Below are positions 819 to 43,880 of a stretch of 43,880 bases of DNA, piece by piece. The notes beneath the pieces are model-generated. The model worked only from the letters and a program-made list of their open reading frames with translations. It ran no database searches and was not told where the DNA came from. Position 1 is the stretch's first letter. The number at the start of each line of letters is the position of its first letter. The position numbers and the translations under genes are program-made. The stretch lies in the IMG/VR virus record IMGVR_UViG_3300045988_187204; one strand, 5' to 3'. Source of the stretch: a virus (lineage: Duplodnaviria > Heunggongvirae > Uroviricota > Caudoviricetes).

Positions 819-1982
819 ATGACTGCAAAAGAAATTGATTTTTTGAGCTCGCGTGAAATAGTAGGTTTCACGCTGCCTGTGTTGCATACCAAGGGCGGTT
901 ACTGGTATGTTGACTTTACTGCCTTTGACCCTGTTTCGGGTCGGATGAAGCGCAAGAAATATATGCTTAATAGGTACAAGACTGACCACAAGAAGCGTAT
1001 GATGGGTACCTTGCTTATCCACAATATCACGGCAAAATTGACCGCTGGATGGAATCCTTGGGTGAATGCCGACAAGTCGAGACAATTCACCGAAATACCA
1101 ATTATCTTTAGTCGTTATCGTGATTATATTAAGTCGATGACCGACAAAAAGTCGATGAAGGAAAAGACCTCTATCGACTACCTCAGCCGCCTCAAGACTC
1201 TGGAGTCTTTCATCACTGAGTGCAAGAGTGTCAAATATGCCTATCAGATTGACCGTGCCTTCGCCATCGACTTCTTAGACCACCTGATGTATGACCGTGA
1301 TGTGAGTGCTACCACAAGAAACAACTATCGCTCTTGGCTTGTCTCCTTCGGCACTTGGCTTATGGATAGAAAATATATCAGCGAGAACCCTGCCATCGAC
1401 ATCAGAAACATCGCTCAGAAGGAGAAGTTCAGAGACCCTTTGACCGAGGGCGCGCTTAAGAAGCTGAAGACTTATCTCTATGATAACAACAGACATTTTC
1501 TCTTGGCTTGCCTCTTTGAATATTATACCTTTATCCGACCGAATGAGTTGACGCAGATAAGAATCAAAGATGTGTCGATTGCTGACCAGACGGTCTTTAT
1601 CAGTTCTGCCATCAGCAAGAACCGTAAGGACGGACTTGTGGCATTGAACGATGAAATCTTGAAGCTCATGATAGAGCTGAAGATATTTGAGCATCCGGGA
1701 CATTGTTTTATCTTTGGCAAGGGGTTGAAGCCTGGTGAGGAGCGAGCACCTTATAACCAACTGAGAGTAGAGTGGGGCAAGATGCGAGATGCTATTGGGT
1801 TTCCGAAGGAGTATCAGTTTTATAGCCTGAAGGACACTGGCATCAGGGATTTGGCGAACGCACAGGGTATCGTGGTCGCCAAGGATCAGGCACGCCACTC
1901 TGATATATCTGTGACGAATCGATATATCAAGAACCAGATGAAAGTGAACGAGGAGACCAAGCACTTCAAAGGTGGGCTTTAG
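819..1982 (+). CDS. int: Tyrosine site-specific integrase
   Basis: ATG at 819 checked; C-terminal ...ARHSDISVTNRYIK contains the H-x-x-R ... Y catalytic signature of tyrosine recombinases; sits immediately downstream of a tRNA gene. Confidence 0.85.
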   Translation: MTAKEIDFLSSREIVGFTLPVLHTKGGYWYVDFTAFDPVSGRMKRKKYMLNRYKTDHKKRMMGTLLIHNITAKLTAGWNPWVNADKSRQFTEIPIIFSRYRDYIKSMTDKKSMKEKTSIDYLSRLKTLESFITECKSVKYAYQIDRAFAIDFLDHLMYDRDVSATTRNNYRSWLVSFGTWLMDRKYISENPAIDIRNIAQKEKFRDPLTEGALKKLKTYLYDNNRHFLLACLFEYYTFIRPNELTQIRIKDVSIADQTVFISSAISKNRKDGLVALNDEILKLMIELKIFEHPGHCFIFGKGLKPGEERAPYNQLRVEWGKMRDAIGFPKEYQFYSLKDTGIRDLANAQGIVVAKDQARHSDISVTNRYIKNQMKVNEETKHFKGGL

Positions 1983-3971: not shown

Positions 3972-6900
3972 TTATTTGTTTGACTTCATTTTTTGATATT
4001 GGCTCCATTGGCGGTCGAAGCCATCGGGGCCGGTGATGACCACGTATGACTTGATGCCAGCATCGAGCTGTTGGTTGAGTCGGTCGATGGTGTTATGCAC
4101 GCTATCGAGGGATGCGCCCATCTGTTCGGTGTCGCCACCTGTGACGTTGACCACTGGGGCGACCACGGCTGCGCTGCCTGTGCCCATGGCACGGCTCACG
4201 TCTTGTGCGGTGAGCGAGGCGACAGTGTTGTTGCGCTGCGCCATATCGATGAGCTGCAGGGCAGGGAGGAGCTGAGGATTGTTGACGGCGTTGTGGTTGG
4301 CGACGAACTCGCCAGCGTGAACCACGCCAGCCTCTTTCTTGTAATTGCCAGGACCAGTGAAACCACCCTCGTAATAGCCAGCCGCCTCTGCCTGGTGCTG
4401 CTTTTTGATTGTTGCTATCTGGAGCATGCCCGCTGCGGTGGCGAGACCTGCGGCGATAGGACCAAGGATGTGACCCACCACTGGGATGGCTGCGGCTGAT
4501 GAGTAGGCGTTGATGGCAGCCATGGCGGTTGAAGCTATGGCTTGTGCGATCTCTATCTTCATCGCCTTTTTGTTGGCCTTGCTCTTGGCTGCAGCCACCT
4601 CTTTGTCTCGCTTCGCCTCGAGTCGCTTTTTCTTGGCTGAGTTGTTGCCAGCGGCAGAAATCTGCTTATCGTAGTTTTTCTCGATCTTGGCGACCTCTAG
4701 GTCTGAGCAGGCCTGAGAGTAGGCGGAGGCAGCGCCCATCATCGTGTTGATGCTGCTGAAGGCAGCGCCAGCGATGGAGGCTATCTCTTGATAGGTCTCT
4801 TTGTTCATCTGCTTTTTGGCATCTAGATAAGCCTGTTCGCTGATGTTGCCATCTCTACGTAGCTTGTCTAGATTATCGTTGACCATCTTTTGCTGTTGGA
4901 TGGCTGCGATGGCACCACCTGCGATTGTGGCGAGGTTGTCGCTGCCCATGGCATTACTGTTGTCGCCGTTGCCCTTGGTCATCTTTTTGGCGGTGTCGAG
5001 GGCGGTGTTGGCATCCTCTTTGCGCTGCTCGTCGGCGGTAGGCTTGTATGAGGCGTATTTGTTGGCGATGCCCATCTTTGTGCGCTGGTATTCCTCCTCT
5101 CTGATGAGACCTGCCTTGTAGATGGCTTCGAGCCCCTGCAGCTCTAGTTGCATCTGCTCTTCGTTGCCGAGCTTGCCGTATTCTTGGCGCAGCTGAAGGA
5201 GTTGTTCGTCGTGTTGCTTCTGAAGGTCGTATTTGCGTTGCTGTTGGGTCAGCTCTCGCTCTTTCTCGATCTGGGCGTACTCGTCAGATGAGGAGAGGTA
5301 GAGGGCTTGCTTTTTGTTGAGATAGTCCTGGTATGAGAGAAAGAGAGCCTCGTTGACGGCATCCTCATTGTGATAGAGGTTGGAGTCTTTGTTGTAGTAG
5401 TCTGCATTGAGCTTCATTTCTTTTTTCTGTCGCTCGGTCTCCAGGGCTTCGAGGTCGGCGGTCTGCTTCTTCTCGTAGTCGGCGGCGATATTCTCTTTCT
5501 CGGCGCTCAATCGCTTGTACTCTTCGCTCTCTGCCTCGCCATACTTTTTGAGGATGTCGAGGCGAGCCTGAAGCCCCTGCTCTTTGATATTCTTCATCTT
5601 CTCGTTGTATTCGGCGAGTCGAATCTGCCCCGTAGCGTAGAGTGTCTTGGCATCTAGCTCTTCGGCTTGGTTGGCTTTCTTGGCATCGTCTAGCTCTTTT
5701 TTCATGTCGGCCTTGCGCTTTGCCTCTGCCTTGCGAGCCGCAGCCTCACGCTTCTTTTTCTCCTTCTCGGCAGCCTTGCGCTCTTTCTCGGTCATGGTAT
5801 GACCAGAGGAAGGGGTGACGGGTGTCTCAGTAGTTGCGCTATTGTTTAGTAAATTCTTCTTTACAGTCTTGTTGTACTGTTTCTGTAAATTAACGTTTTT
5901 CTCTAATTGCTGATTATAGAAATTCTCTTCAGCATTGACTTTTTTTTGCAGGCTTAGGTTTGCCTGTAGTCTTTGCGTATGAATTTGCTTTTGCTTCTCG
6001 TTGCTCTTCAGTGCCTCGTTTTGTTCGATGAGCTGACCTGTCCATCCATCAGCCACGGCATTGCTCTCATATTGCTTAGGATGAGCCTTGCGCTCAGCAT
6101 CGACAGCCTTCAGAGAATATCGTATGCGGCTCTCTTTTTGTTTGAGTTTCAGTTTCTTTTTATTGATTTCCACTTTGCGTTCATAGATAGCTTCTGCCAT
6201 GGCAGCATTCTCTAGCTCCTTGATGTAGTTTTGGATGGCAATCTGATTGTCGTTATACAACTTGCCCTCTTTGGAGATAGAGGCGTGATATTCTGGGACG
6301 AGCTTTTGCATATTTGCGATAGCTTGCTTGCGCTCGTCAACGGTATAGGCATTGGAGTGGATAACCTTGTTGAGCATATCGACCTTGTTGCGCTCATCGA
6401 GGGTAGCATCAGACACTTTTTTGGCGAGGCTGGCTTGAGCCTCTGCCACAGCTCTGTTGTTTTTAGCCTCTTGCGTGTTGTTGCGCATCGCCTCATTGTA
6501 AGATGTTATGGCTTTGTATGCCCCATAGGCAGCCACGCCCACAACGGTGATTACCGTGGCGAGGGCAGCCCATGGATTGGTGAGACTGGCTAGGCGTGCC
6601 GCCCTCATCACCACGATGTAGCCCTGTATGCCTTTTGTGAGATAAGCCCATGTGGCTTGCAGTGCCACTAAGGCAGCACGCAAAAGGGTAGAAGTTGCAG
6701 CACAAGCTTTATCGACAGCTGAAGCGTATTGCACAGCGGCAGATTTAATCTTAATAGCGATTGTCTCCTTGTACCAGAGAGTAGTACAAACAGCGATGGC
6801 TGTTGACAGCACGGCTATTTGTTTGGCATAGGTGACGGTGAAGGTGATGAGTGTGGACATGACCTTTATAGTCAGGCTGAACGACGTGATGCCATATTTC

Positions 6901-11328: not shown

Positions 11329-12972
11329 TCACGTGAATTTATAGAACTTCTTTTTGAATTTATTGTGAAGCTCTGCGACCACGGTGGAGAAGGGTAGCTC
11401 ATCACGACAGAAGTCGTTGAGGGCTTGGTCTATCAAGATCTTGGAGCCTGTATAGAGGTAGTGCTCCAGAGGTTGCCATACCTCGGTGCCGTCTGGCTCC
11501 AGGTGGTCGATGATGCGATAGCGTAGGGAGAGGCGCTTCTTGGGCACCTCTTTGGTGACCATGTGGGTGGAGCCGTCCGGGGCGGTCTCCTCTTGCTGGA
11601 TGGTCTCCTTCTCTATCACCGAGTCATCGACCTTGTAGTCTATCACTTGAACGAGGAACTTGTTCTCGTCCTGACCCTCACGGCAGATGATGTCCTCGAT
11701 GGACTGCTGCTGTGATTTCTCCATACCGTCAAAAGGCACGCGCGCACGGCGAGCCTTGACGAGTTTACCGAATCTTTCCATACCGATTTTCTTATATAAG
11801 TTTTTAGAGTTTGCGTGGATGCCCAGACCTAGGCGAGAGGCTGCCTTGAGCTGTATCTGGCGGTCTGTGAAGCCCGCCTTGCGTAAGTTGGCGATCTGTC
11901 TGCAGAGGTCGTGCTTGAACCGCTTGCGCAACAGGGCGTGGTCGGCGTAGATGATCTGACCGCAGAAGTCGATGCCATCGCAGGTGCGGTGGATACCCCA
12001 AGACTTATTGATGGATAGGTGCCAGTCACGGGCGAGGTGCATCACGGCAAGCTCTGCCATCAGCCTGAGGAACACCTTATCCTCGTGGAGGATGTAGATG
12101 TTGTCCATGAAGCGGTAATAATGGCGAAGACCTTGGCGGCAGAAGCGCTCGAACCTATCGTTGAGCGACTTCACTCCCCCGCATAGCAGTTGAGCTTGCT
12201 GCTGAGTGCGACAGGTAACGAGCATGTCGATCACGTAGCGAGCCTGCCAGTAACGGAACTTGTCGGTGTCTTGGAGAATGTCGAAGCATCGGAGTGCCAG
12301 GTAATCGAAGCGGGCGAGGAAGAGCTGACCCAAGAGTTGGGCGAGCTTGACGCCGAGCACGATGCCTGGATTGAAGCTATCGACCACCTCGTCGATGAAG
12401 GCGAGGAGCTTGCGGTCTTTGATCTTGCGGCGATATTCACTTTTGAGAAGAGCGTGGTCTATGCTCTGAAAATAATGGTGAATATCCATGGGCAAGCAGT
12501 AGAAGGTATCTTGCTGTGGCGAGTTGAAGATGTCTCGCTTGACAAGATTATAGAAATAATGGGTGCCCTTGCCCTTGGAACCAGCCGGACTGTGGCTGTA
12601 GAGTGTCTTGCGAAGGTTATCCTCTACAGGTTGCAGGGCAGCGTGCTGGATGACGTGGTCGATAACGGGCAGCTTGTTGACTTGGCGATGTTTTGGATAG
12701 TCGATATCTTTGGCGACATAGGCTGAGGTATGCCAAGTTTGTTGGGTGTAAGCATCGAGCATGCGTCCGATGTTATGGTCTAGGTTTGCCTCGAATTTTT
12801 GGACCGCACGGCGAGACATCTTTTGTCGGGCGTAGTCATAGAATGCCCGACGAAAGTTGTCTAGTGTCTCGACCTGTGGCGATATGTTGCCAAACCTTTT
12901 CATAAGCGGTGTAATGTCTGTGTTGAACGGTGTATAAACTGTGTATAGTCTGAATCGTCTGCTTTTGTACAC
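11329..12972 (-). CDS. Reverse transcriptase of a diversity-generating retroelement
   Basis: RT-like motifs in order: YFQSIDH (motif 2-like), GIVLGVKLAQLLGQLF (motif 4 with the DGR-typical [I/L]Gxxx[S/A]Q in place of QGxxxSP), RFMDNIYIL (motif C position), GIDFCGQII (motif 7-like); TR lies 140 bp upstream. Track start at 12972 is GTG; first in-frame ATG is at 12903. Confidence 0.85.
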   Translation of the reverse strand: MYKSRRFRLYTVYTPFNTDITPLMKRFGNISPQVETLDNFRRAFYDYARQKMSRRAVQKFEANLDHNIGRMLDAYTQQTWHTSAYVAKDIDYPKHRQVNKLPVIDHVIQHAALQPVEDNLRKTLYSHSPAGSKGKGTHYFYNLVKRDIFNSPQQDTFYCLPMDIHHYFQSIDHALLKSEYRRKIKDRKLLAFIDEVVDSFNPGIVLGVKLAQLLGQLFLARFDYLALRCFDILQDTDKFRYWQARYVIDMLVTCRTQQQAQLLCGGVKSLNDRFERFCRQGLRHYYRFMDNIYILHEDKVFLRLMAELAVMHLARDWHLSINKSWGIHRTCDGIDFCGQIIYADHALLRKRFKHDLCRQIANLRKAGFTDRQIQLKAASRLGLGIHANSKNLYKKIGMERFGKLVKARRARVPFDGMEKSQQQSIEDIICREGQDENKFLVQVIDYKVDDSVIEKETIQQEETAPDGSTHMVTKEVPKKRLSLRYRIIDHLEPDGTEVWQPLEHYLYTGSKILIDQALNDFCRDELPFSTVVAELHNKFKKKFYKFT

Positions 12973-13111
12973 TTGATAACCTTCGACCGGATGACCGTGT
13001 TGTCATCATCTACCAGCTGTCTTATTAATGTGTATGTATCGCCATGGGGCGAGGATTGACCCTGTAATCTCGAAGTGGGAGCAAACGACCCACGAAGAGA
13101 TATGTCTGTAA

Positions 13112-31067: not shown

Positions 31068-32669
31068 CTATAGCATGGAACCCGTGGCGATGTAGCCATC
31101 AGCCTGAGGGTATTTCTCCATGCCAATCATGAGCGTGTCGTAGGCATCGGAGCCATCGGTGCGAGCCTCCAACTTATCCTCCTCGGTCTCAGCCAGCTTC
31201 TCGCCTCGCTTATCCTTCTTGCCGTTGTAGACCCCGGCCAGGCGGATGGAGATGAGCAGGTCTTCGTTGTTCTCGCTGTTGATCATCGAGCGATGCTCAG
31301 CCTTGCCGAGGAACATGCGGTTGAGCAGAAGCATCTTTTCGAGATGTCCCATCGGGTTGCCCAGATAGACCTCGTTGACATACCAGCCATGGTCGGTGAG
31401 GTAGTCGGTGATGAAGGTATGGAAGTCATCGTTCATCAGGGCGTAGTTGTTGCCCACGAAGGTGGAGTCGTAGTAGAAGTTGACCTCTTTGCACCGATGG
31501 TACTCATAGTACTGCATGAACTTGTCGAGCAGGGCTGGCAGCTTCTCCTCATACTTCACGAAGATGCTCTTGAGGCAGCGTGCCTCGCCCCGCAGGTTGT
31601 CTTGTCCGACGGCTATCCAGTTGATGAGGGCGTTGGCATCGAAGGCGATGCAGAGCGGACGGTCGGGGTCAACGTCGGCATCCATTCTGGAATCTACATG
31701 CTTGAGCTTGTCGATGTCGTAGCCCAAGCCATCGAGGTAGGCGAGGTTGGGCGCCGTGTATAGGTTGGCATCCCTGAGGTTGGAGTAGAAGCCATCGAGC
31801 GAGATGGAAGGTCGCTTGCACATGATGGAGGTCTGGAAGGTGAGGGCAGGGAGGTCTCGCTTCATCTGCTTGATGAACTCCATGCCGAGCACCTCGATGT
31901 TATAGACCGATGAGTACTCTTTATAGAAGAGTGCCTTGGAGCGCAGTTGCGCCAGGAGCTGACCAATCTCTCGGAGTCGGCGCTGGGCATAGCCTGAGAC
32001 ATGGCCCGAGGTCTTGATGCGGTTGCGTATGTCATACTCCTCTACCACGAGCGAGGCGATGGCGTCGATGAGCAGCTGGTCGCAGTCTTTCTTGTAGTTG
32101 AGGAACCAGGAGCCCTTCTTGGTCACGGGCATATCAGAGGTGATGAGCATGCCATGGTGGTAGTAGTGCTGGCCGAAGAGGTTGACGTTGCCTCGATTGG
32201 CAGGGAAGGTCTCGTCTTTGAGCTGTTCGAAGTTGATGAACTTCGCCTCGTCGATGTCGAGGTAGTCGAGCGAGAGGGAGTTGGAGGTACCCTTGCGGTC
32301 TTGCGAGATGATGGTACCGATGGAGCCGTTATAGAAAGAGATGGTGTTCTCCCAGTTGCTGGGCGGTATGACCGGGTCGGGCCATCCCAGTTTTTTGGGA
32401 GGCTTGACCCCGATGAGATAATGCTTGCCCCGGTGGAAGCCCCATCGCTCCCAGTGCTGAAGCATCGACGGTATGGTGTTGGTGAGGCATCGCTTGGTGT
32501 TGGCGGATACGAAGCCGCCGTTGCTGCCAGGCATGCGCTGCATGTTGCGCAGGTTGAAGGTGGCGTGGAGAATGCTCTTGCCGATGCCTCGACCGCCCAC
32601 GACCACGTTGTCGCGGGCGGAGATGAGGTTGACCTCCATCTGGGCTGGGTTGAGATATTGATCTATCAT
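31068..32669 (-). CDS. terL: Terminase large subunit
   Basis: 533-aa ORF, ATG at 32669; N-terminal Walker A …VVVGGRGIGKS… and Walker B-like …LDYLDIDEA…; ATGA start/stop overlap with the upstream gene. Confidence 0.75.
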   Translation of the reverse strand: MIDQYLNPAQMEVNLISARDNVVVGGRGIGKSILHATFNLRNMQRMPGSNGGFVSANTKRCLTNTIPSMLQHWERWGFHRGKHYLIGVKPPKKLGWPDPVIPPSNWENTISFYNGSIGTIISQDRKGTSNSLSLDYLDIDEAKFINFEQLKDETFPANRGNVNLFGQHYYHHGMLITSDMPVTKKGSWFLNYKKDCDQLLIDAIASLVVEEYDIRNRIKTSGHVSGYAQRRLREIGQLLAQLRSKALFYKEYSSVYNIEVLGMEFIKQMKRDLPALTFQTSIMCKRPSISLDGFYSNLRDANLYTAPNLAYLDGLGYDIDKLKHVDSRMDADVDPDRPLCIAFDANALINWIAVGQDNLRGEARCLKSIFVKYEEKLPALLDKFMQYYEYHRCKEVNFYYDSTFVGNNYALMNDDFHTFITDYLTDHGWYVNEVYLGNPMGHLEKMLLLNRMFLGKAEHRSMINSENNEDLLISIRLAGVYNGKKDKRGEKLAETEEDKLEARTDGSDAYDTLMIGMEKYPQADGYIATGSML

Positions 32670-33295
32670 AGTGCTTTGTCCTCCTTGACTTCTTCTGTAG
32701 GTGTATATTCCAAGAGCTGTTCGTCGTAGTCCTCGGCCTCGATCTTGACGAGATCCATGGAGTTGTCGGTGTATTTCTTGACGAGCTTCTTGATGGTCTG
32801 CATCACGTTAGGGATGCGCTTGAGACCCAAGTGTCGTGGGTCGGTGGTAGGGATGAAGACCTGAGGCTGAATCTGGTCGTAGCCGTTGTCGGTAGGATCC
32901 TCTTTGTCGAGCAGGTGATATTTGCCGTATGCAGCTGCGGCGGCAGCCATGGCTCGGGCATCGCCCATGGAGTCGGCCTTGTCGTAGGTGCGCTGTATCA
33001 TCTGGTCGAAGCGATAGCGGGCGAAGTCTTTTGACACTTTTTGCAGGTTGCCCAATATGAGCTTGATGAGGTGCAGGTCGTTGTAAGCCATCATGCGCTG
33101 CACCTTGTAGTCGTGCATATCTTTATAGACCAGCTCTTGGTCGCTCTTGCGAGGGTTGATGAGCCACCAGGCATAGAGGGCACGGATGCGCAAAATGCGG
33201 TCGCGCACTGGGGCGGGCACATTTTGCGCATCCATCTCTTCGGGTGTGCGGTCCATCAGTTCGATGATGGCATCGATGTTGGCGGGTTCTCTCAT
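32666..33295 (-). CDS. Hypothetical protein upstream of terL (terminase small subunit candidate)
   Basis: 209-aa ORF translationally coupled to terL; assignment by position only. Confidence 0.3.
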   Translation of the reverse strand: MREPANIDAIIELMDRTPEEMDAQNVPAPVRDRILRIRALYAWWLINPRKSDQELVYKDMHDYKVQRMMAYNDLHLIKLILGNLQKVSKDFARYRFDQMIQRTYDKADSMGDARAMAAAAAAYGKYHLLDKEDPTDNGYDQIQPQVFIPTTDPRHLGLKRIPNVMQTIKKLVKKYTDNSMDLVKIEAEDYDEQLLEYTPTEEVKEDKAL

Positions 33296-33573
33296 ATTCT
33301 AATCTCCTCTAACATTTGGTTCAGATATTCGTGTGTGCGCTGCACCGCCTGTGGCGAGCCAGCCGCAGCCAGGTCTAGCTCGTTTTTGCGTATCTGCTGG
33401 CGCACCGTCGCCATGCCCAAGTAATAGACACGGTGAAGCTCGGAGTCGGGCTTCAGTATCTCGTCACGCAGATCGTCCTCGCTAATATCCAAAAGGACGG
33501 ACATCTCGGATATCGGAGTCAACGTCTCCGCGAAGTCTTGCACTTTTTTGAGTAATTCCTGAGAAATTTCCAT
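33292..33573 (-). CDS. Hypothetical small protein (start uncertain)
   Basis: 93-aa ORF overlapping the upstream gene; an internal ATG at about 33504 would reduce the overlap. Confidence 0.3.
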   Translation of the reverse strand: MEISQELLKKVQDFAETLTPISEMSVLLDISEDDLRDEILKPDSELHRVYYLGMATVRQQIRKNELDLAAAGSPQAVQRTHEYLNQMLEEIRI

Positions 33574-34057
33574 TGATTCTTAAGCTTTGAGTGTCACAAT
33601 GAAGGGTATATCCGCCGAAGAGGTCGGCGAAGACCTGCGGGTCGGTGGTGATGATGGTTGACTCGTCACGGCTGCCGTAGGTCTGGTTTTGCGAGGTGAC
33701 GACCGACACGACGTGCTGGTCGTTGCGGAAGAGTGTCACCTTGGAGTGGTTTTGCCCCAGGAACACATCGTCGAAGCAGGTCTGCATCATGCGCCACAGC
33801 TGCACGGTCTTTTTGCTCGCCTTGACATCGAGCAGCATCGTTGCCGACAGGATGCTGCCCGACTGGCGCATCAGGCGGAAGCCTCGCAGGAACTCCTCGG
33901 AGGTGGAGTAGGAAGACACCCACACATCTGCAGGGCCTATCTGGGAGAGAATCCACTTGATGAGACCGAGGGTGTGGAGGTGCCGCCCGAAGTAGGCTTG
34001 CGTCTGGGCATCGGCGATGGGACGGAGCAGGTCACTGACCTTGACCTTGGTCGGCAT
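33482..34057 (-). CDS. Hypothetical protein
   Basis: 191-aa ORF. Confidence 0.4.
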   Translation of the reverse strand: MPTKVKVSDLLRPIADAQTQAYFGRHLHTLGLIKWILSQIGPADVWVSSYSTSEEFLRGFRLMRQSGSILSATMLLDVKASKKTVQLWRMMQTCFDDVFLGQNHSKVTLFRNDQHVVSVVTSQNQTYGSRDESTIITTDPQVFADLFGGYTLHCDTQSLRINGNFSGITQKSARLRGDVDSDIRDVRPFGY

Positions 34058-36626: not shown

Positions 36627-37652
36627 TTATGCGAACTGATTTAAAGCATCCAACACTTGATCTGAGCAGAAATCCTCGACCTTGGTGTCATCGACAGCAG
36701 TGTGCGTGTCGCCACCAGGCTCTCCCTCCAGATCCTTCACTTTATCCTTCAGGTCATCTCTCTCCTTTTCGAGATTCTTGACCTGAGTCTCTAACTCCTT
36801 CTTCTCATCCTTGACCTTCTGAAGCTCTGTGTCTTTGTCGGTCACGGCCTTGGAGTCGGCAGCAATCTTATCCTCCAGCTTCTGCATCTGCTCCTGAGAG
36901 ATGGTGCAGTCCTTGGCTGAATCCTCTGCCTCAATGCCCTCGATGTTGAGGACATTGTTGATGTGAGTCCATTTTTTAATCATATTAATAATTTTGTTTT
37001 GAGATTTATCTTTACCGAAAATTCGGTCGATGAAGCTTGGCTTTTTATCATACCAAGAGTTGACGACCTCAGGGAGCACCGGAAGGTTGTTGTACTTGAT
37101 GAAGTCTTGTGTCTGCTCTGTGATGTCAGCAGGTTTGCCATCCATGGACTCATCGACGAGACCCAGTTCGATGCACTCATCGACGGTGTGCCACTTTGCC
37201 TCGGACATCACCTTGACGATGTCCTCGTGCTTCTTGCCCGAGCGATCGCAGTAAACGTTGGCGATGATGTTGTCGATTTTCTGCTGGTTCTCTTGCTGTT
37301 TTTGAAGCTGCTCGATGAGCGAGCCTATCTGCTCCTCGTTGAGCGCAGACCACACAAACTGCTCGGTAGAGCACTTGTGTACCAGGAGCAAGCTATATTT
37401 GCTCATGCGAATCTTGCTGGCACCCATCGCACAGATGGTGGCAGCAGAGGCAGAGAAGCCCGCCTGGAAGTCAACGGTCACATCGCCATGGGACTTGAAC
37501 ATCTGGCAGATGGCGAGACCTGCGGAGACCTCACCACCCAAGGAGTCGATGGCAACATCGACGTGCTTGTCTTTGTTAGCCTTGAGAATGTCGCGGACCA
37601 TGAGTTTTGTCCACGAGCCAATATATCCAGTGATAGAAATTTGGTACTTCAT
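36627..37652 (-). CDS. Prohead serine protease (ClpP/S49-like) fused to a C-terminal scaffold-like coiled coil
   Basis: 341-aa ORF, ATG at 37652; …DSLGGEVSAGLAI… and …FSASAATICAMGAS… resemble Clp-type protease active-site regions; K/E/D-rich C-terminal coiled coil. Confidence 0.6.
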   Translation of the reverse strand: MKYQISITGYIGSWTKLMVRDILKANKDKHVDVAIDSLGGEVSAGLAICQMFKSHGDVTVDFQAGFSASAATICAMGASKIRMSKYSLLLVHKCSTEQFVWSALNEEQIGSLIEQLQKQQENQQKIDNIIANVYCDRSGKKHEDIVKVMSEAKWHTVDECIELGLVDESMDGKPADITEQTQDFIKYNNLPVLPEVVNSWYDKKPSFIDRIFGKDKSQNKIINMIKKWTHINNVLNIEGIEAEDSAKDCTISQEQMQKLEDKIAADSKAVTDKDTELQKVKDEKKELETQVKNLEKERDDLKDKVKDLEGEPGGDTHTAVDDTKVEDFCSDQVLDALNQFA

Positions 37653-38211: not shown

Positions 38212-38796
38212 TTAATCTTTGCTAAATCTTGTTGTAGATATTAAATTTACGCCTCTTTTTGCGTGTTGATCACGCATTCTGTAGAAACATTGGCGTACGG
38301 TATCCTCGTAATCGATGCCAATGCCATGCTGTTCGCACCATGCCGAAATGAGCGATGAAAGCTTGCATGAGCGGTCGGCGATGTCTTTGAGCGAAGCCCA
38401 GAGATCCATCTTGAAGAGGTCGGAAATCATCTCTTTGACGGCACGTCTGGCACGTGGCCCGAGGTAGTTGTACTCTCGCACAGGCTTAGCCTTGGAGTCA
38501 GGCAGCTCGATGGCAAGATACTCTTCGGGATGGGTGAGCCATCGGCTCTGCTCGAACTCCTCGTCGTGGAAGGTATGCTTGACACTTTGGTGCAGTTGGC
38601 TGGCATCAGCCTGCTGCATCTCTTGGATGTTCTCTTGGTCGATAGGCGATAGGTTGACAACGGGAGGTCTGCTGGTGAACTTGCGGAGCACAGCCACCTC
38701 GTTGCCGATGGCAGGGAAGACCACTGGGTTGCCATAAGCTCGGTAAGCCCATTGTCTGATGTGGGTAGGAACTTTGATGTAAACAATTGGATTCAT
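38212..38796 (-). CDS. Hypothetical protein
   Basis: ORF track 38212..38808 starts at TTG; first in-frame ATG at 38796 (MNPIVYIKV…); CAAAGATA -7-like element at 38817-38824. Confidence 0.4.
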   Translation of the reverse strand: MNPIVYIKVPTHIRQWAYRAYGNPVVFPAIGNEVAVLRKFTSRPPVVNLSPIDQENIQEMQQADASQLHQSVKHTFHDEEFEQSRWLTHPEEYLAIELPDSKAKPVREYNYLGPRARRAVKEMISDLFKMDLWASLKDIADRSCKLSSLISAWCEQHGIGIDYEDTVRQCFYRMRDQHAKRGVNLISTTRFSKD

Positions 38797-38940
38797 ATAG
38801 CTATGCAATTTTCGTGCAAAGATACAAAGAAAATTTGAAATAACTAACGATAATCGGTAAAAACTAACTTTTATCAGTAAATTTGGTGTGATATAATTTC
38901 GTCCGAAAAGTTTGTATTTTTGTATCGTACAAACAAGGCT

Positions 38941-39190
38941 CTGTAACTAGCTGATAATCAATACTATTTTTGTGATACAATTTTCTGATACAGAAATTGT
39001 AACTCTTTAGCTTTTGTAACTTGGGGTTTTGTCGAGGTCGAAGACCTGTAGGAGAAGGGGCTTGTTACAAACTTGAAAAACTTTGTAACCGAGTTGTAAC
39101 GCAACTTTGTAAACATCGGCATGGCGGCTTAACTCACTCTTTTTTAGTTATTTACATCTTTTGCTAACATTATGTTACAGAGTTACAAAG
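38941..39190. repeat. Iteron-like array of TTGTAAC / GTTACAA heptamers (candidate replication origin or multi-site operator)
   Basis: TTGTAAC at about 38997, 39014, 39083, 39094 (plus TGTAAC at 38942 and TTGTAAAC at 39107); GTTACAA at about 39064 and 39183; small palindromes TTGTA-tcg-TACAA and TTGT-gat-ACAA nearby. Confidence 0.45.
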
Positions 39191-39334
39191 GATTTGTATA
39201 AAATAAAAGAAAGGGGTGTGGGGAAAACGATGGCACGGGGCGTGAAGGAGGTTAGAAAAGGCCCATCGAGACACCCAGGACACCCCCATTGGCCAATGGA
39301 GGGGTAGCGAGACGAAACATCGCCCATGGCAACG

Positions 39335-39369
39335 AAAAAAGGGAGCGACGGCCAATGCGCATCGCTCCC
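39335..39369 (-). terminator. Intrinsic terminator (- strand) downstream of the primase-helicase gene
   Basis: Stem GGGAGCGA (39341-39348) / TCGCTCCC (39362-39369), then six U on the - strand (+ strand AAAAAA at 39335-39340). Confidence 0.45.
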
Positions 39370-39501
39370 TCGTAACATGGGAAAAGAATTATAAATCAGC
39401 AAAAATCTGCCTATGAAATCAGCCCTCGTCTGCTTGCAAAAATAGTGAAAAATTGCTTGAAAATTTAGCCGAAAATATTTGCATAATTCAGATATTTTTT
39501 G

Positions 39502-39509
39502 TACCTTTG
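39502..39509 (+). promoter_or_regulatory. Putative + strand promoter facing into the 3' end of the primase gene (antisense)
   Basis: TTTG at 39478-39481 and TACCTTTG at 39502-39509, 20-nt spacing; same GTACCTTTGCAC 12-mer as the tRNA promoter. Confidence 0.35.
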
Positions 39510-39550
39510 CACTATAACTTGGGGCTATCTATTCTATTATATATGGATGG

Positions 39551-42504
39551 CTAGAAAGGTTTATCACTATCTTTATCTACCTTGCTCCAGTCAATGGTAG
39601 ATTGATATTCACCCCCAGCTGCAGGGACATCAGCCTTGGCAGCTTGTTTATCCTCTTTTTTATCATCACTCTTCTTGCTTCGGAGATAGATCATCTCGAC
39701 AGGGCTGCCGTCTGGGTTAGCTGGATCGCGTCTGATGATGCGGTGCTGGCTGTTGCAGAGATCAGCTGGGTTCAGCTCTTGGATGTATGGACACAGCTCG
39801 ACGAAGGCTCTGAGCTTTTTGGTGAAGCTCTGTGTGGTCGCCTTGTTGATGCCTGAGAACTGCTTGAAGTCATTGAACGCACGCTCTCTCACGATAAATG
39901 TATCGAGTCGCTCGCTCTCTTCTGAGAAGTAGGATGCAGCCCAGTCTTCGAAGTTGACACCCATGTCGGCCTTGAACTTGCGCTTGATGATGTTATCCAT
40001 CGGTGGCATGATCTTGATAGGTTCGCCAGCCAAGGAGAGATAGAAACGACAGCACTGCAGGAAAAAGTTGATGTCAGCATTCCACTCATCCTCAGTGTAT
40101 GTCTTTGAGAAGAGATCTTCGTCGAAGTCATCACGGATGCTTCGGGTCTCTTGGTAATCATTCTCCTCTGTGCGCTGATGGTAATAGTCGGAGAACACCA
40201 TATAGAGCAGTCTCGCCTCTGAGGAAGGGTCGAAGTCTGCCGGCACGTAGTTGGTGGTGAAGGCAATCTTCGGGCTATCCTCGAAAGGAATTGTGAAGCT
40301 CTGGTTGTTCTTTGGGTTGACTGTCATATCTGAAGTAATGTTATCGTAAAATAAACCTGTGTTGAGATAGCGGTCACAGTCATCGAGGAGCAGCATCTGG
40401 GTGTGCTGTGTCACCTGATCGAAGACGTGTGGGTTGTCCATCAGCTTAGGGTTGCGTCCGGAAAGCTTGACTGTTTTCATCAGCAGTGAAAGCGTCTTGA
40501 AGAAGAAACTCTTACCGGAACGGCCGTTGCACTCGTTGTTTTCACCAATCTTGTTGTCCATCGCCATCGGAGCCCAAGCCCTGGATGGTGCCTTGTAATG
40601 ATGGAGCATGTAGCCGAAGGTGAAAATCTTGTTTATCAAGTTCTGCTTTTGCTCTTGTATCTCGTTGTCGGCAAGCCCTTCGCCAGCGATGTCGAAGAGG
40701 TGTGCCTTGTGGTATGCCTCTTTCTCCTCGATGCTCTTGTCCTCAAAAGCATACTCTAGCTCTTTGCGCCAGTAGGTGCGAGAGGCGTTGATGAGATAGC
40801 CGAAGAAGTGGGACTTCACGTTCTTGACCTCGATGTCGAACTTCGGCCTGCCATCCTCGTCGATGGTTCGTGTGATGGAGAACATGTCATCCAACTTCTT
40901 GAAGTTGTGGTTGATGACATTCTCTTGCCAAACATAGTTTTTGAGCGAGCTGCCCTCACGCTGGTACTCGTTTAGTCCATCTTTGGTGACCTCGACGCTG
41001 ACACGAGGGAAGAAGAACAACTGCGAGTGGTTGGTGTAGCTGGTGAAGTCTAGCGTAATCTCTTGGAGCGAGTCGAGCGCCGATGCCGACAGCTTTGGCG
41101 TGTTGAGCACCAAGTTAAGGATGTCACGCTTCTCAGCTCTCTCGATGACCCATTGGCGGCAGAACTCACGGATGTCTCTCGTGGTGATGAGCTTGACGAT
41201 GTTGCCCGTGATGCGAACATATTTGGTGATGGTCGAGTTGTCATCGTGCAAGGTATAGAAACCATTGAGACGAAGAAAATTGTAGAGGCACGCCGTGTCG
41301 ATGTAGTGGTCCCAGGTGTTAGCCTTTTTGTTGAGCTTGCTCACCCAAAATCGGGCTGGCATCGCCAGTGTCATGAGGTTGCGGAAGTCTTTGCGAGTAT
41401 TGCGCAGCTCCATCCAGTCTCGCAGGTCTTTGCGCCCCTTGCCACGGTTGTCGTGGTAGGTGCGAAGCCAAGAAGGCAACCATATCGTATGGATGTCGAT
41501 GAAGCGCAGGGCAAGCTCTGTGCCCTTGGCGATGCCCGTCTCGTCGATGTCGGGTATATTGTAGAGCACCTCGACATACTTCATAATCTCTCGGTACTCC
41601 TCGTCGCTGAGCTTGTAGGTCTCGGAGTTGAACCATAACGGGTTGTAGCCCATGGAACGGCAGCAGAGACTGTCACGCTCGCCACTGCAGATGAAAGCCT
41701 CGGGAAGTTTCTTCTCCTTGTAAGGCTTGGACTCGTCTGTGTTGGTCTTGTTGTACTCAGCCTCTTCACGGCGGTTGAACTCGTGATAGGCAGCCTTCAG
41801 CTCAGCTAGGCCATTGATGTATTGCTTAGGCTTGATGCCGTCTGGGGTGTAAGAGAATCGCCACTGCTTTTGGTAGTTGAGAGGCTCATATATCTTGTAG
41901 AACTTAACCTCAGGCTTGTCGCCTTCAGCTGGGCGAACCAAGCACTCACGCATAAAGATAGGGTAGTGCTCGTTGCTGTGCTTAATCTTGACCTTGCGGT
42001 CTTTGACGTATCCTATCCACTTGGCGGAATGCCAGTTGAGTGCATCGACGTGCTCTTGCTTGACGTTTGGACCCAGTACCTTCAGTTCATCCTCGGTGAA
42101 CTTCTCGTTCAGCTCGAAAGGTCTGGTACCATCTTTCTCGTTGATGGTGGCATCACGCTCTGTGAATGTAGGCTTGTTGACCTCTTTTTTGAGTTCATCG
42201 CTAACGTTGTATTCGGAAGCCAGTCTCAGGATGGCATCAGGAAAGCGGTCGATGCACTTCTCTCTCATGTAGAGGTCGATAGGTGACTCGGCAGAGCCGT
42301 CGCCGCCGAAGTCAGTCACTCGCCAGCAGTCTTTGAACTTTTTGAGACTGCAGGAAGGTGTTTTCTCATTGCGGATGGCAAAGTGCTTTTTAGGCGTGCC
42401 AGTCGTGCAATATTTCTGGACGCATTCTTTTGCGTCCGGGTATAGTGAGATGATGATGTCGAGACCATCATCTGTAGCTTGATAAATTTGTTCTGCTTTG
42501 ATCA
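39551..42504 (-). CDS. DNA primase / SF3-type helicase (P4/D5-like replication protein)
   Basis: ORF track 39551..42535 starts at TTG; first in-frame ATG at about 42504 (MIKAEQIYQ…); C-terminal half has Walker A …NECNGRSGKSFFFKTL… and Walker B …QMLLLDDCD…. Confidence 0.7.
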
Positions 42505-42567
42505 TAATTCTTTTCCATTGTAAATTTGCTTGCAAAATTATTGCAAAGCGAGTTCAAAACAAAATAC

Positions 42568-43381: not shown

Positions 43382-43502
43382 ATTCCAATATTTATTATTA
43401 ATTTTGTTGCAAAGTTAGTAATAAAAATCGGAAAATACTAACGAAAGTAAGTAAAAACACCTATGATAATAGGTTAAATATTATTAATTAAATTAGGTAA
43501 TT

Positions 43503-43880
43503 ATGTTTAATGGTCAGATAATCAGAAAGTTAATGTCGGATGCTGGCTTAACTAAAAAAGAGTTTGAAAGACGTATGTTCGGTAGTAAATCGACCGACCT
43601 CAACCATTTGGAAAAAGCGAAGAATCTTCGCAGTGACACTCTCGAACGTCTGCGTGAGGTGTTGAAGTGCTCTATGGATGACTTCTTTACAGCACCCTCA
43701 TGGGCTGAGAACGGAAAGGGGACAGTCGTAGGCTCTAACAATGTGCTGTCAACAGTAGCCATCGGCAACGAAGTGATGGAAGCCCAATATCTCAAGGAGT
43801 TGCTCTTGGAGAAGGACAAACGCATCAGCACTTTGGAAAATTATATCAAGCTTCTGGAGACTAACTTAAATAAGGACTAA
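43503..43880 (+). CDS. XRE-family helix-turn-helix transcriptional regulator (prophage repressor candidate)
   Basis: 125-aa ORF ending at the window edge with stop TAA; N-terminal …IRKLMSDAGLTKKEFERRMFGS… is HTH-like; on the + strand like the integrase, opposite to all lytic genes. Confidence 0.55.
   Translation: MFNGQIIRKLMSDAGLTKKEFERRMFGSKSTDLNHLEKAKNLRSDTLERLREVLKCSMDDFFTAPSWAENGKGTVVGSNNVLSTVAIGNEVMEAQYLKELLLEKDKRISTLENYIKLLETNLNKD

Follow-up and report, generated by a model that had tools for sequence, protein, structure and literature searches.

The alpha protein of phage P4 reportedly binds short direct and inverted repeats (type I iterons). It has a three-part organization, with a DnaG-type primase, a superfamily 3 (SF3) helicase, and a C-terminal origin-binding winged helix (PMC2777425), and PriRep5 of SaPI5, a Staphylococcus aureus pathogenicity island (SaPI), has the same organization (PMC9371898). 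In SaPI origins, the C-terminal winged helix of Rep reads short iterons, 6-12 of which are located downstream of rep; the center is AT-rich with at least two opposed iterons per side, and two hexamers presumably load themselves, one per side (PMC9371898). ORF904 of plasmid pRN1 combines a primase-polymerase, an SF3 helicase, as well as a winged helix, and the origin follows the terminator of its rep gene (PMC4234260). Here, we analyze an intergenic region in 43,880 bp of viral DNA (IMG/VR record IMGVR_UViG_3300045988_187204; this whole stretch is referred to as the window). The region carries an array of the heptamer GTTACAA (TTGTAAC in the opposite orientation) downstream of a primase-helicase gene. 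We consider it likely, from comparison of sequences, that the core of this array (39064-39188) and the conserved tracts flanking it are the replication origin of the phage, an origin of the SaPI-Rep/P4-alpha type. The first-pass annotation of the window had also read the repeats as an iteron origin, which is now supported by the neighboring primase-helicase, by a SaPI-like layout, and by co-variation of the heptamer with the C-terminal domain of that protein.

The region extends from 38797 to 39550 (754 bp); on the minus strand, it follows the stop codon of a 984-aa gene and precedes ATG 38796 of a 194-aa gene. It had been described as 725 bp free of open reading frames (ORFs); it is indeed noncoding, but its true limits are those given here, and mechanical ORFs of 30-75 aa lie inside it, none of them conserved. 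Read on the minus strand, the repeats do lie downstream of the primase-helicase gene, as had been stated earlier, and the identity of this gene was established via structure. The gene and the parts of the array are as follows:

39551-42505, minus strand: primase-helicase gene, 984 aa from ATG 42505, stop codon at 39551; modeled as a zinc-domain remnant (DnaG-like), a DnaG/T7-type primase (Toprim), an SF3 helicase, and a C-terminal domain
39671-40015, minus strand: coding region of the C-terminal domain (residues 831-945) with the wing strand RIIRR (residues 922-926); proposed iteron reader
39174-39188, minus strand: left iteron pair, TTGTAAC-tc-TGTAAC, 8 nt start to start; kept in all close relatives
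39114-39173, minus strand: central spacer of 60 bp, conserved in length, purine/A-rich on the sense strand; candidate unwinding region
39064-39113, minus strand: right iteron set, TTTACAA (39113-39107), GTTACAA (39100-39094), and GTTACAA (39089-39083), with an inverted copy TTGTAAC (39070-39064)
39021-39063, minus strand: variable spacer of ~40 nt
38941-39020, minus strand: distal copies GTTACAA (39020-39014 and 39003-38997) and GTTACAG (38947-38941); less conserved

The copies of the heptamer are far more numerous than base composition predicts, which was the check proposed with the first-pass annotation. The window contains 10 exact copies of GTTACAA/TTGTAAC compared with 3.24 expected, and none of 100 shuffles reached 10. 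Six exact copies fall within 38997-39188; local shuffles, which were confined to the 754-bp intergenic region and preserved dinucleotides, gave a mean of 0.16 exact copies, and six copies of this word were never reached (0/5,000). When one mismatch is allowed, the intergenic region has 16 matches compared with 3.5 expected, and three of the one-mismatch copies are in register with the array (GTTACAG at 38941, TTTACAA at 39107, and GTTACAG at 39174). This gives a total of nine sites in 38941-39188, located 363-610 nt past the primase-helicase stop; the "at least eight" heptamers reported earlier are thus found if the in-register copies are counted, although only six are exact. The right set is spaced at 13 and 11 nt, approximately one helical turn, and is oriented opposite to the left pair. 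The central spacer is 35% GC overall and 20-23% GC in its lowest-GC stretch of 30-40 nt. The distal copies, which are only partly kept in 90% relatives, are interspersed with GATACA/TGTATC words and with small palindromes; those described previously were found at 38920-38932, 38970-38980, and 39036-39046. No second cluster was detected in the 43.9-kb window with one mismatch allowed, and the cI/cro intergenic region (43382-43502) contains no heptamer.

It is hardly credible that this region holds no dedicated element, the heptamers being chance words in an AT-rich spacer, promoter-like TTTG repeats, or sites for host nucleoid proteins. On the one hand, TTTGTAAC includes TTTG, the Bacteroidetes -33 word, and in a look-elsewhere control some 7-mer, usually an A/T run, reached six copies in ~7% of the local shuffles. 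On the other hand, no shuffle reached the observed count of this particular word, the layout described below is kept across genera, and the word changes in concert between lineages within one host genus, including to forms such as GATACAA and TCACAA that have no TTTG context. Given the ~7% look-elsewhere rate, the decisive support for the array is therefore its conservation in relatives.

We compared the region with 80 loci from viral contigs (primase identity of 54-100%) and, by a genome scan, with 80 further loci from Prevotella, Bacteroides, Muribaculaceae, Porphyromonadaceae, and Alloprevotella; individual loci are denoted by L numbers. Close relatives keep a terminator and a C-rich tract (both described below), the left pair, and the right triple with its inverted copy, and have large indels in a GC-rich block. 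Nine lineages with 54-93% primase identity repeat one layout, and the surrounding DNA of the distant ones is unalignable. These lineages include the isolated Bacteroides phage BT-TP2 (PQ571279), whose primase-helicase is 67% identical to that of the window. The common layout consists of the terminator, the C-tract, two heptamers, a spacer of 50-61 bp, and three or four opposite heptamers at 10-14-bp spacing. An equivalent of the left pair, with the lineage's own heptamer, is present in 9/9 distant representatives, and the spacer is purine-rich on the sense strand across lineages, with a GC content of 19-37% in seven of the nine. The heptamer itself is GTTACAA, ATTACAA, ATCACAA, GTCACAA, GTAACAA, GATACAA, or TAGACAA, depending on the lineage, and a change affects all copies on both sides of the spacer. 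Such concerted change within one host genus is therefore attributable neither to chance nor to a host factor, and it implies a phage-encoded, lineage-specific reader.

A similar arrangement was found in an outgroup. Plasmid pSR14 of Salinibacter ruber (L163, NZ_CP030359.1) encodes a "primase-helicase family protein" that is 24% identical to the one in the window, and GGTGGTCCAGG repeats follow directly after this gene, which ends at 4754. Four direct copies start from 4764 at 11-bp spacing, more are found at 4871 and 4880, and inverted copies are present ~200-300 bp further (4994, 5069, and 5078), the whole array spanning 4764-5101. The order of gene and then phased repeats is thus a property of this primase-helicase family across phyla. 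Plasmid pSR14 also has a terminase gene and may be a phage-plasmid. No comparable repeat array was found near the primase gene of Polaribacter phage Leef_1, whose product is 36% identical.

The closest match to this layout is that of SaPIs and other phage-inducible chromosomal islands (PICIs). As in those elements, the initiator is an SF3 (D5/P4-like) helicase, here with a fused primase, which is optional in them, and nine sites are located downstream of a rep-type ORF, although not immediately adjacent to it. Two copies (39188-39174), a 60-bp spacer, and three opposed copies (39113-39083) follow one another in an order found in nine lineages, with an AT-rich spacer in seven of them. The cognate specificity of the C-terminal domain and the iterons known from these elements appears to exist here as well, as indicated indirectly by the co-variation described below. 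In contrast to SaPIs, the phage has a DnaG/T7 gp4-type primase that retains a zinc-domain remnant, and its iteron cores are 7 nt rather than 5-6 nt long. The array starts ~360 nt past the stop codon, from which a terminator and a variable GC block separate it, the carrier is a full Bacteroidales prophage rather than a satellite, and sequence similarity is undetectable.

Searches of Pfam and NCBIfam (even at E<=10) and of PDB sequences with the primase-helicase as query gave no match, and the only hit was to PHROG 28855, which has no assigned function. TIGR01613 and the Pfam D5_N and Pox_D5 models did not match, no sequence homology to P4 alpha was detected, and a weak DUF5906 match was seen only in the BT-TP2 orthologue. 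The identity of the protein was therefore established by structure: according to the models, it is a DnaG-type primase fused to an SF3 helicase, which bears out the primase-helicase label given at first pass. The Walker A (GRSGKS) and Walker B (LLLDDCD) motifs are legible in its sequence. Residues 831-945 were modeled as strand-helix-helix-strand-strand-strand (pLDDT 80-88), and it is on this model that the assignment of the C-terminal domain as a winged helix rests. A profile of this domain searched against PDB sequences returned only a chance match and no solved relative.

The protein ends in a tail that is modeled as disordered (39551-39580, minus strand). Nearly all homologue C termini shown have an acidic tail with a final aromatic residue, mostly PF (DKDSDKPF, EDEKPF, EDETPF); a few end in AF or AY, and BT-TP2 lacks the aromatic ending. 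By analogy, the acidic tail resembles the partner-recruiting C-terminal tails of SSB and T7 gp4.

The C-terminal domain diverges much faster than the remaining protein; for example, in L047, L049, and L051, the core is 87-98% identical and the C-terminal domain 56-63%. In 44 dereplicated loci with at least five heptamer copies, residue x of the wing motif R-I-x-R predicts positions 1-3 of the heptamer, and this rule holds in 38/42 cases, as follows:

Wing I, T, or V: heptamer starts with xTT in 15/17 loci
Wing Q: heptamer starts with xTC in 12/13 loci
Wing S: heptamer starts with GAT in 5/5 loci
Wing L: heptamer starts with GTA in 6/7 loci

On a tree built from residues 1-830 only, with the C-terminal domain left out, the heptamer/wing classes are not monophyletic. 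L120 (RII, GTTACAA) is nested among RIS/GATACAA phages, L111 (RVM, TAGACAA) among RII/GTTACAA phages, and RIL/GTAACAA occurs in a Prevotella clade as well as in Muribaculaceae. Whenever two C-terminal domains are at least 85% identical, the heptamer repertoires are the same. Comparison with the window alone, domain by domain, failed to separate the heptamer classes, and the signal appears only in pairwise and within-clade comparisons, of which the most telling are these:

L120 and L118: core 85%, head gene 1 91%, C-terminal domain 60%; GTTACAA x9 versus GATACAA x9
L052 and L075: core 93%, head gene 1 98%, C-terminal domain 54%; different heptamer repertoires
Window and BT-TP2: core 68%, head gene 1 21-24%, C-terminal domain 68%; same heptamer

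These comparisons bear on an alternative that had been raised at first pass, a multi-site operator. The array would then be a control region of the head (late) operon, and the heptamers would bind an activator or repressor for the promoter at 38824-38817, and either the protein encoded first in the head operon or the primase-helicase, in a regulatory role, might be the one that reads them. The array does lie between an efficient terminator and a head promoter that has a -7 box but no clear -33 box, and the gene of the 194-aa family, which in most relatives comes immediately after the large intergenic region, has a product that in the window is weakly similar to winged-helix/homeodomain folds and in BT-TP2 (gp8) is annotated as a "transcriptional regulator." However, head proteins that are 91-98% identical stand beside different heptamers, and ones that are only 21-24% identical stand beside the same heptamer. 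The array and the -7 box are ~110 to >1000 nt apart, depending on the relative, and in L118/L120 a 205-aa ORF separates them; no copy overlaps the promoter, the nearest one in the window being at least 115 nt from the -7 box. No motif is shared with the cI/cro region, and opposed sets around a spacer fixed at 50-61 bp have no obvious operator logic. Extra ORFs are tolerated between the primase gene and the terminator, and the array is therefore a self-contained module. The variable promoter distance and the lack of a cI/cro motif thus weaken the operator alternative, which we regard as unlikely. The array might also serve both functions, with late transcription coupled to the firing of the origin.

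Sliding DNA identity in the L120/L118 and L052/L075 pairs is ~90% at first, drops to 45-70% exactly where the C-terminal coding region begins, and returns to 85-100% once the array has ended. Natural recombinants have thus exchanged this coding region and the array as one unit. The reciprocal case, in which the C-terminal domain is constant and the array follows the head gene, was not seen among the relatives compared. Because of the co-variation, the joint replacement, and the pairs with the same heptamer and different head genes, we assign the heptamers to the C-terminal domain of the primase-helicase rather than to the downstream gene.

Co-variation shows that the domain and the heptamers belong together and not what their binding achieves. 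Consequently, the C-terminal domain could bind the heptamers for a purpose other than initiation, such as copy control by titration or handcuffing, prophage incompatibility, or autoregulation of the early operon. P4, for example, has a second cis site, crr, besides ori. The window differs from P4 in this respect: no second distant iteron site is present in its 43.9 kb with one mismatch allowed, and the single cluster leaves no other candidate origin with cognate sites. In addition, the array is located downstream of the gene and not at its promoter, and the opposed sets with an A-rich spacer correspond to the helicase-loading arrangement of SaPIs (PMC9371898). Taken together, these points make a noninitiation role quite improbable.

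Both-orientation repeats at the head of morphogenesis genes also resemble packaging sites, namely the R sites of lambda cosB and P1 pac. The array could accordingly be a pac or cosB-like site that the small terminase recognizes where the structural module begins; we consider this very improbable and rejected it, as the terminase candidates are elsewhere, ~6 kb away. The genes beside the array encode an orphan protein, a protein of 139 aa, and a head protease, and the heptamer tracks the C-terminal domain of the primase. The candidates, all on the minus strand, are a TerL-like ORF (31068-32669; PHROG 2, E 1e-4, a weak match), an overlapping 209-aa ORF (32666-33295), and an HNH/endonuclease-like ORF (33482-34057). 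The packaging genes appear to be located downstream of the protease and capsid genes, which is an unusual module order.

Several observations weigh against an origin read by the C-terminal domain. The spacer of L047 and L051 is 45-51% GC and hence not AT-rich. The array does not begin directly after the stop codon, the ~360 nt in between being occupied by the terminator and the GC block, and in L064, L074, BT-TP2, and L120, extra ORFs separate it from the primase gene. The C-terminal domain has no sequence-level match to the winged helix of P4 alpha or SaPI Rep, and the part of the protein model that aligned to RFX is not necessarily this domain. The wing rule has exceptions (L147, L158, L098/L064/L071, and L162), and other residues of the C-terminal domain therefore contribute too. 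Since the C-terminal coding region adjoins the array, linkage could mimic functional co-variation. Finally, the cumulative GC skew, a check suggested by the first-pass annotation, is monotonic and shows no inflection at 39 kb, but with all genes in one orientation this result is uninformative and speaks neither for nor against an origin.

If the array is an origin, replication could proceed as follows; binding, melting, priming, and origin firing are steps that we infer. After induction, the 984-aa primase-helicase would be made from the early operon, its transcript ending at the terminator (39369-39335). Its C-terminal domain, the modeled winged helix, would recognize the GTTACAA heptamers, with the beta-wing RIIRR implicated. 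The opposed iteron sets (two copies on one side, three phased copies and an inverted one on the other) would place one SF3 helicase hexamer or more at each flank of the spacer, the A-rich 50-61 bp would melt, and the fused DnaG-type primase would lay the first primers. The host polymerase would then be recruited, perhaps through the acidic C-terminal "...DKPF" tail. A bolder proposal, which on present comparisons we put forward only tentatively and consider doubtful, is that the C-terminal domain and the array form a specificity cassette that is exchangeable across Bacteroidales temperate phages. Such a cassette would follow a near one-residue-to-one-base rule (T for wing I/T/V, C for Q, A for L, and GAT for S) and would set replication specificity and hence incompatibility or cross-talk among the numerous related prophages found side by side in gut Prevotella and Bacteroides.

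Other described origins share some of these features. Like P4 alpha, the initiator is one polypeptide with a DnaG-type primase, an SF3 helicase, and a C-terminal domain, the last modeled here as a winged helix. The locus shares with pRN1 the order of rep gene, terminator stem-loop, and origin, the single multifunctional initiator, and a poorly conserved origin sequence with better conserved flanks (PMC4234260); in contrast to the phage array, the origin of this archaeal plasmid is a 100-nt stem-loop without iterons, and its primase is archaeo-eukaryotic. Classical iteron origins (lambda ori, R6K, pPS10, and F) likewise have phased direct repeats next to an A/T-rich unwinding region; these repeats are read by the replicon's own initiator, and specificity diverges between relatives. 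However, classical iterons are 17-22 bp long and all direct, and a separate Rep or O initiator recruits host DnaB, with lambda ori located inside the O gene, whereas the phage array has 7-bp cores in opposed sets at 11-14-bp spacing and an initiator that is itself helicase and primase.

The window is an integrated temperate phage. It carries tRNA-Met (627-702), an integrase gene (819-1982, plus strand), and a cI-like helix-turn-helix gene (43503-43880, plus strand), and nearly all remaining genes are on the minus strand. IMG/VR contig 3300045988_187506 matches it, and its ~90% relatives reside in Segatella copri genomes. The carrier of the array is a complete, siphovirus-like temperate prophage of Bacteroidales and not a satellite. 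Around the array, the following features were recognized:

39478-39509, plus strand: perfect match to the Bacteroidetes-type promoter consensus TTTG-N20-TACCTTTG, read from sequence
39335-39369, minus strand: predicted intrinsic terminator of the primase-helicase transcript, a 10-bp stem followed by T6, from folding
39229-39334, no strand assigned: variable GC-rich block including a 14-bp palindrome; length and sequence differ even among 90-99% relatives
39191-39228, minus strand: C-rich tract with a T-run and TATACAAA, conserved and adjoining the array; the plus strand has G-runs here
38885-38910, minus strand: conserved block cttttcggacgaaattatatcacacc between the array and the head-operon promoter, kept in the window clade, L047, and L051
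38817-38824, minus strand: -7 box TATCTTTG of the head-operon promoter, without a clear -33 TTTG, 20 nt upstream of ATG 38796, read from sequence
38212-38796, minus strand: gene that opens the head operon; its 194-aa product belongs to an orphan family and may bind DNA; a neighbor and not the proposed iteron reader

The hairpin at 39341-39369 has a folding energy of -25.9 kcal/mol (z -4.4) and is followed by a T-run at 39340-39335. It had been recognized as a terminator before and is real and strong, although it works as such on the minus strand only. The hairpin is kept in relatives, partly via G-U wobble changes in the stem (L012/L020/L024), and a stem plus T-run follows the replication genes in distant lineages as well. 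An extra ORF of ~100 aa is found between the primase-helicase gene and the terminator in L081 (4592-4906), L120 (3-350 past the stop), and L130 (335-601 past the stop); its products have a common "...QVYRYLERM.../...KVYHY..." motif, and it is missing from the window. L071 (4698-5000) and L064 (5780-5920) contain short tandem-like words (caacttgtRaactcatcaac...) in blocks that have inverted partners; these blocks flank the iteron array on both sides and look like a small inserted repeat element.

The GC-rich block and the perfect 14-bp palindrome at 39286-39299 had both been noted together with the repeats at first pass. The palindrome is present, but we rejected it as an origin part: the window contains three perfect 14-bp palindromes compared with 2.7 expected, and this one occurs only in L001/L002, which are identical contigs, and is missing from 90-93% relatives. 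The block is mostly lineage-specific and hypervariable and, judging from its sequence, is probably nonessential filler. Two other readings of the block were rejected: a small ORF, because peptides and frames are not conserved even though an "MGD..." start is common to the window, L047, and L051, and a structured element, because the single-stranded DNA fold has a z score of only -3.1 and there is no conservation. The C-rich tract, by comparison, was found in every lineage examined, even though its flanks are unalignable and the adjacent GC block is hypervariable. This tract (GGGGTGTGGGG on the plus strand) beside the iterons may be able to form a G-quadruplex or i-motif.

Promoters were identified by eye from the Bacteroidetes consensus TTTG/TAnnTTTG. 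A sigma-70 promoter and terminator scan gave chance-level results only, its model being unsuited to Bacteroidetes. The consensus match at 39478-39509 is located between the primase stop and the terminator and is antisense into the 3' end of the primase gene, with no ORF downstream. The same pattern, with the -33 and -7 boxes kept and the spacer diverged, is present in 13/83 related loci from two clades, compared with 2.9% of random segments; L004 lacks ~124 nt beside the primase stop, and the antisense promoter is deleted there. Together with the G-runs of the C-tract, this promoter, which is present in some clades, may hint at a priming or control step that is new to SaPI/P4 origins. At the other end of the region, a TAnnTTTG box is found at the position equivalent to the head-operon -7 box in all relatives compared. 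Searched as nucleotides against 50,697 phage records, the region gave no match, and Rfam 15, at gathering and permissive thresholds, identified no noncoding RNA in it, including the GC-rich block (only chance-level hits with E>2).

In the head operon, on the minus strand, the 194-aa gene is followed by a 139-aa ORF and then by the gene for a ClpP-like head maturation protease (36627-37652). The 194-aa protein (pLDDT 85) has 54 homologues with no names or Pfam domains and only weak winged-helix/homeodomain-like matches. Its BT-TP2 homologue, gp8 (L081, 5501-5989), annotated as noted above, is only remotely related (hhalign probability 90%). Elsewhere in the window (12955-13056, minus strand), the Rfam model RT-17 matches with 59.9 bits (E 2.5e-9); this motif is associated with reverse transcriptases and diversity-generating retroelements, and such retroelements have been reported in BT-TP2-like phages (PMC12694917).

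An SF3 primase-helicase with a cognate iteron origin is a known kind of element and, as a class, it is expected here and would not surprise a specialist, but it is new for this phage family, and its comparative signature is unusually clear. We found no description of the replication origin of these phages in the literature, and the BT-TP2 paper mentions neither primase nor origin. Relatives of BT-TP2 have been reported from many strains (PMC12694917). Prophages of this kind abound in Segatella/Prevotella and Bacteroides of the human gut, and a single one of their protein clusters stands for thousands of member sequences. If the array is indeed the origin, it would provide a minimal replicon candidate for genetic tools in Prevotella/Segatella, for which good vectors are lacking, and the matched pairs of winged helix and heptamer would form a natural series for studying the evolution of DNA recognition. 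Origin specificity, and possibly replication interference between co-resident prophages, would then be predictable from sequence.

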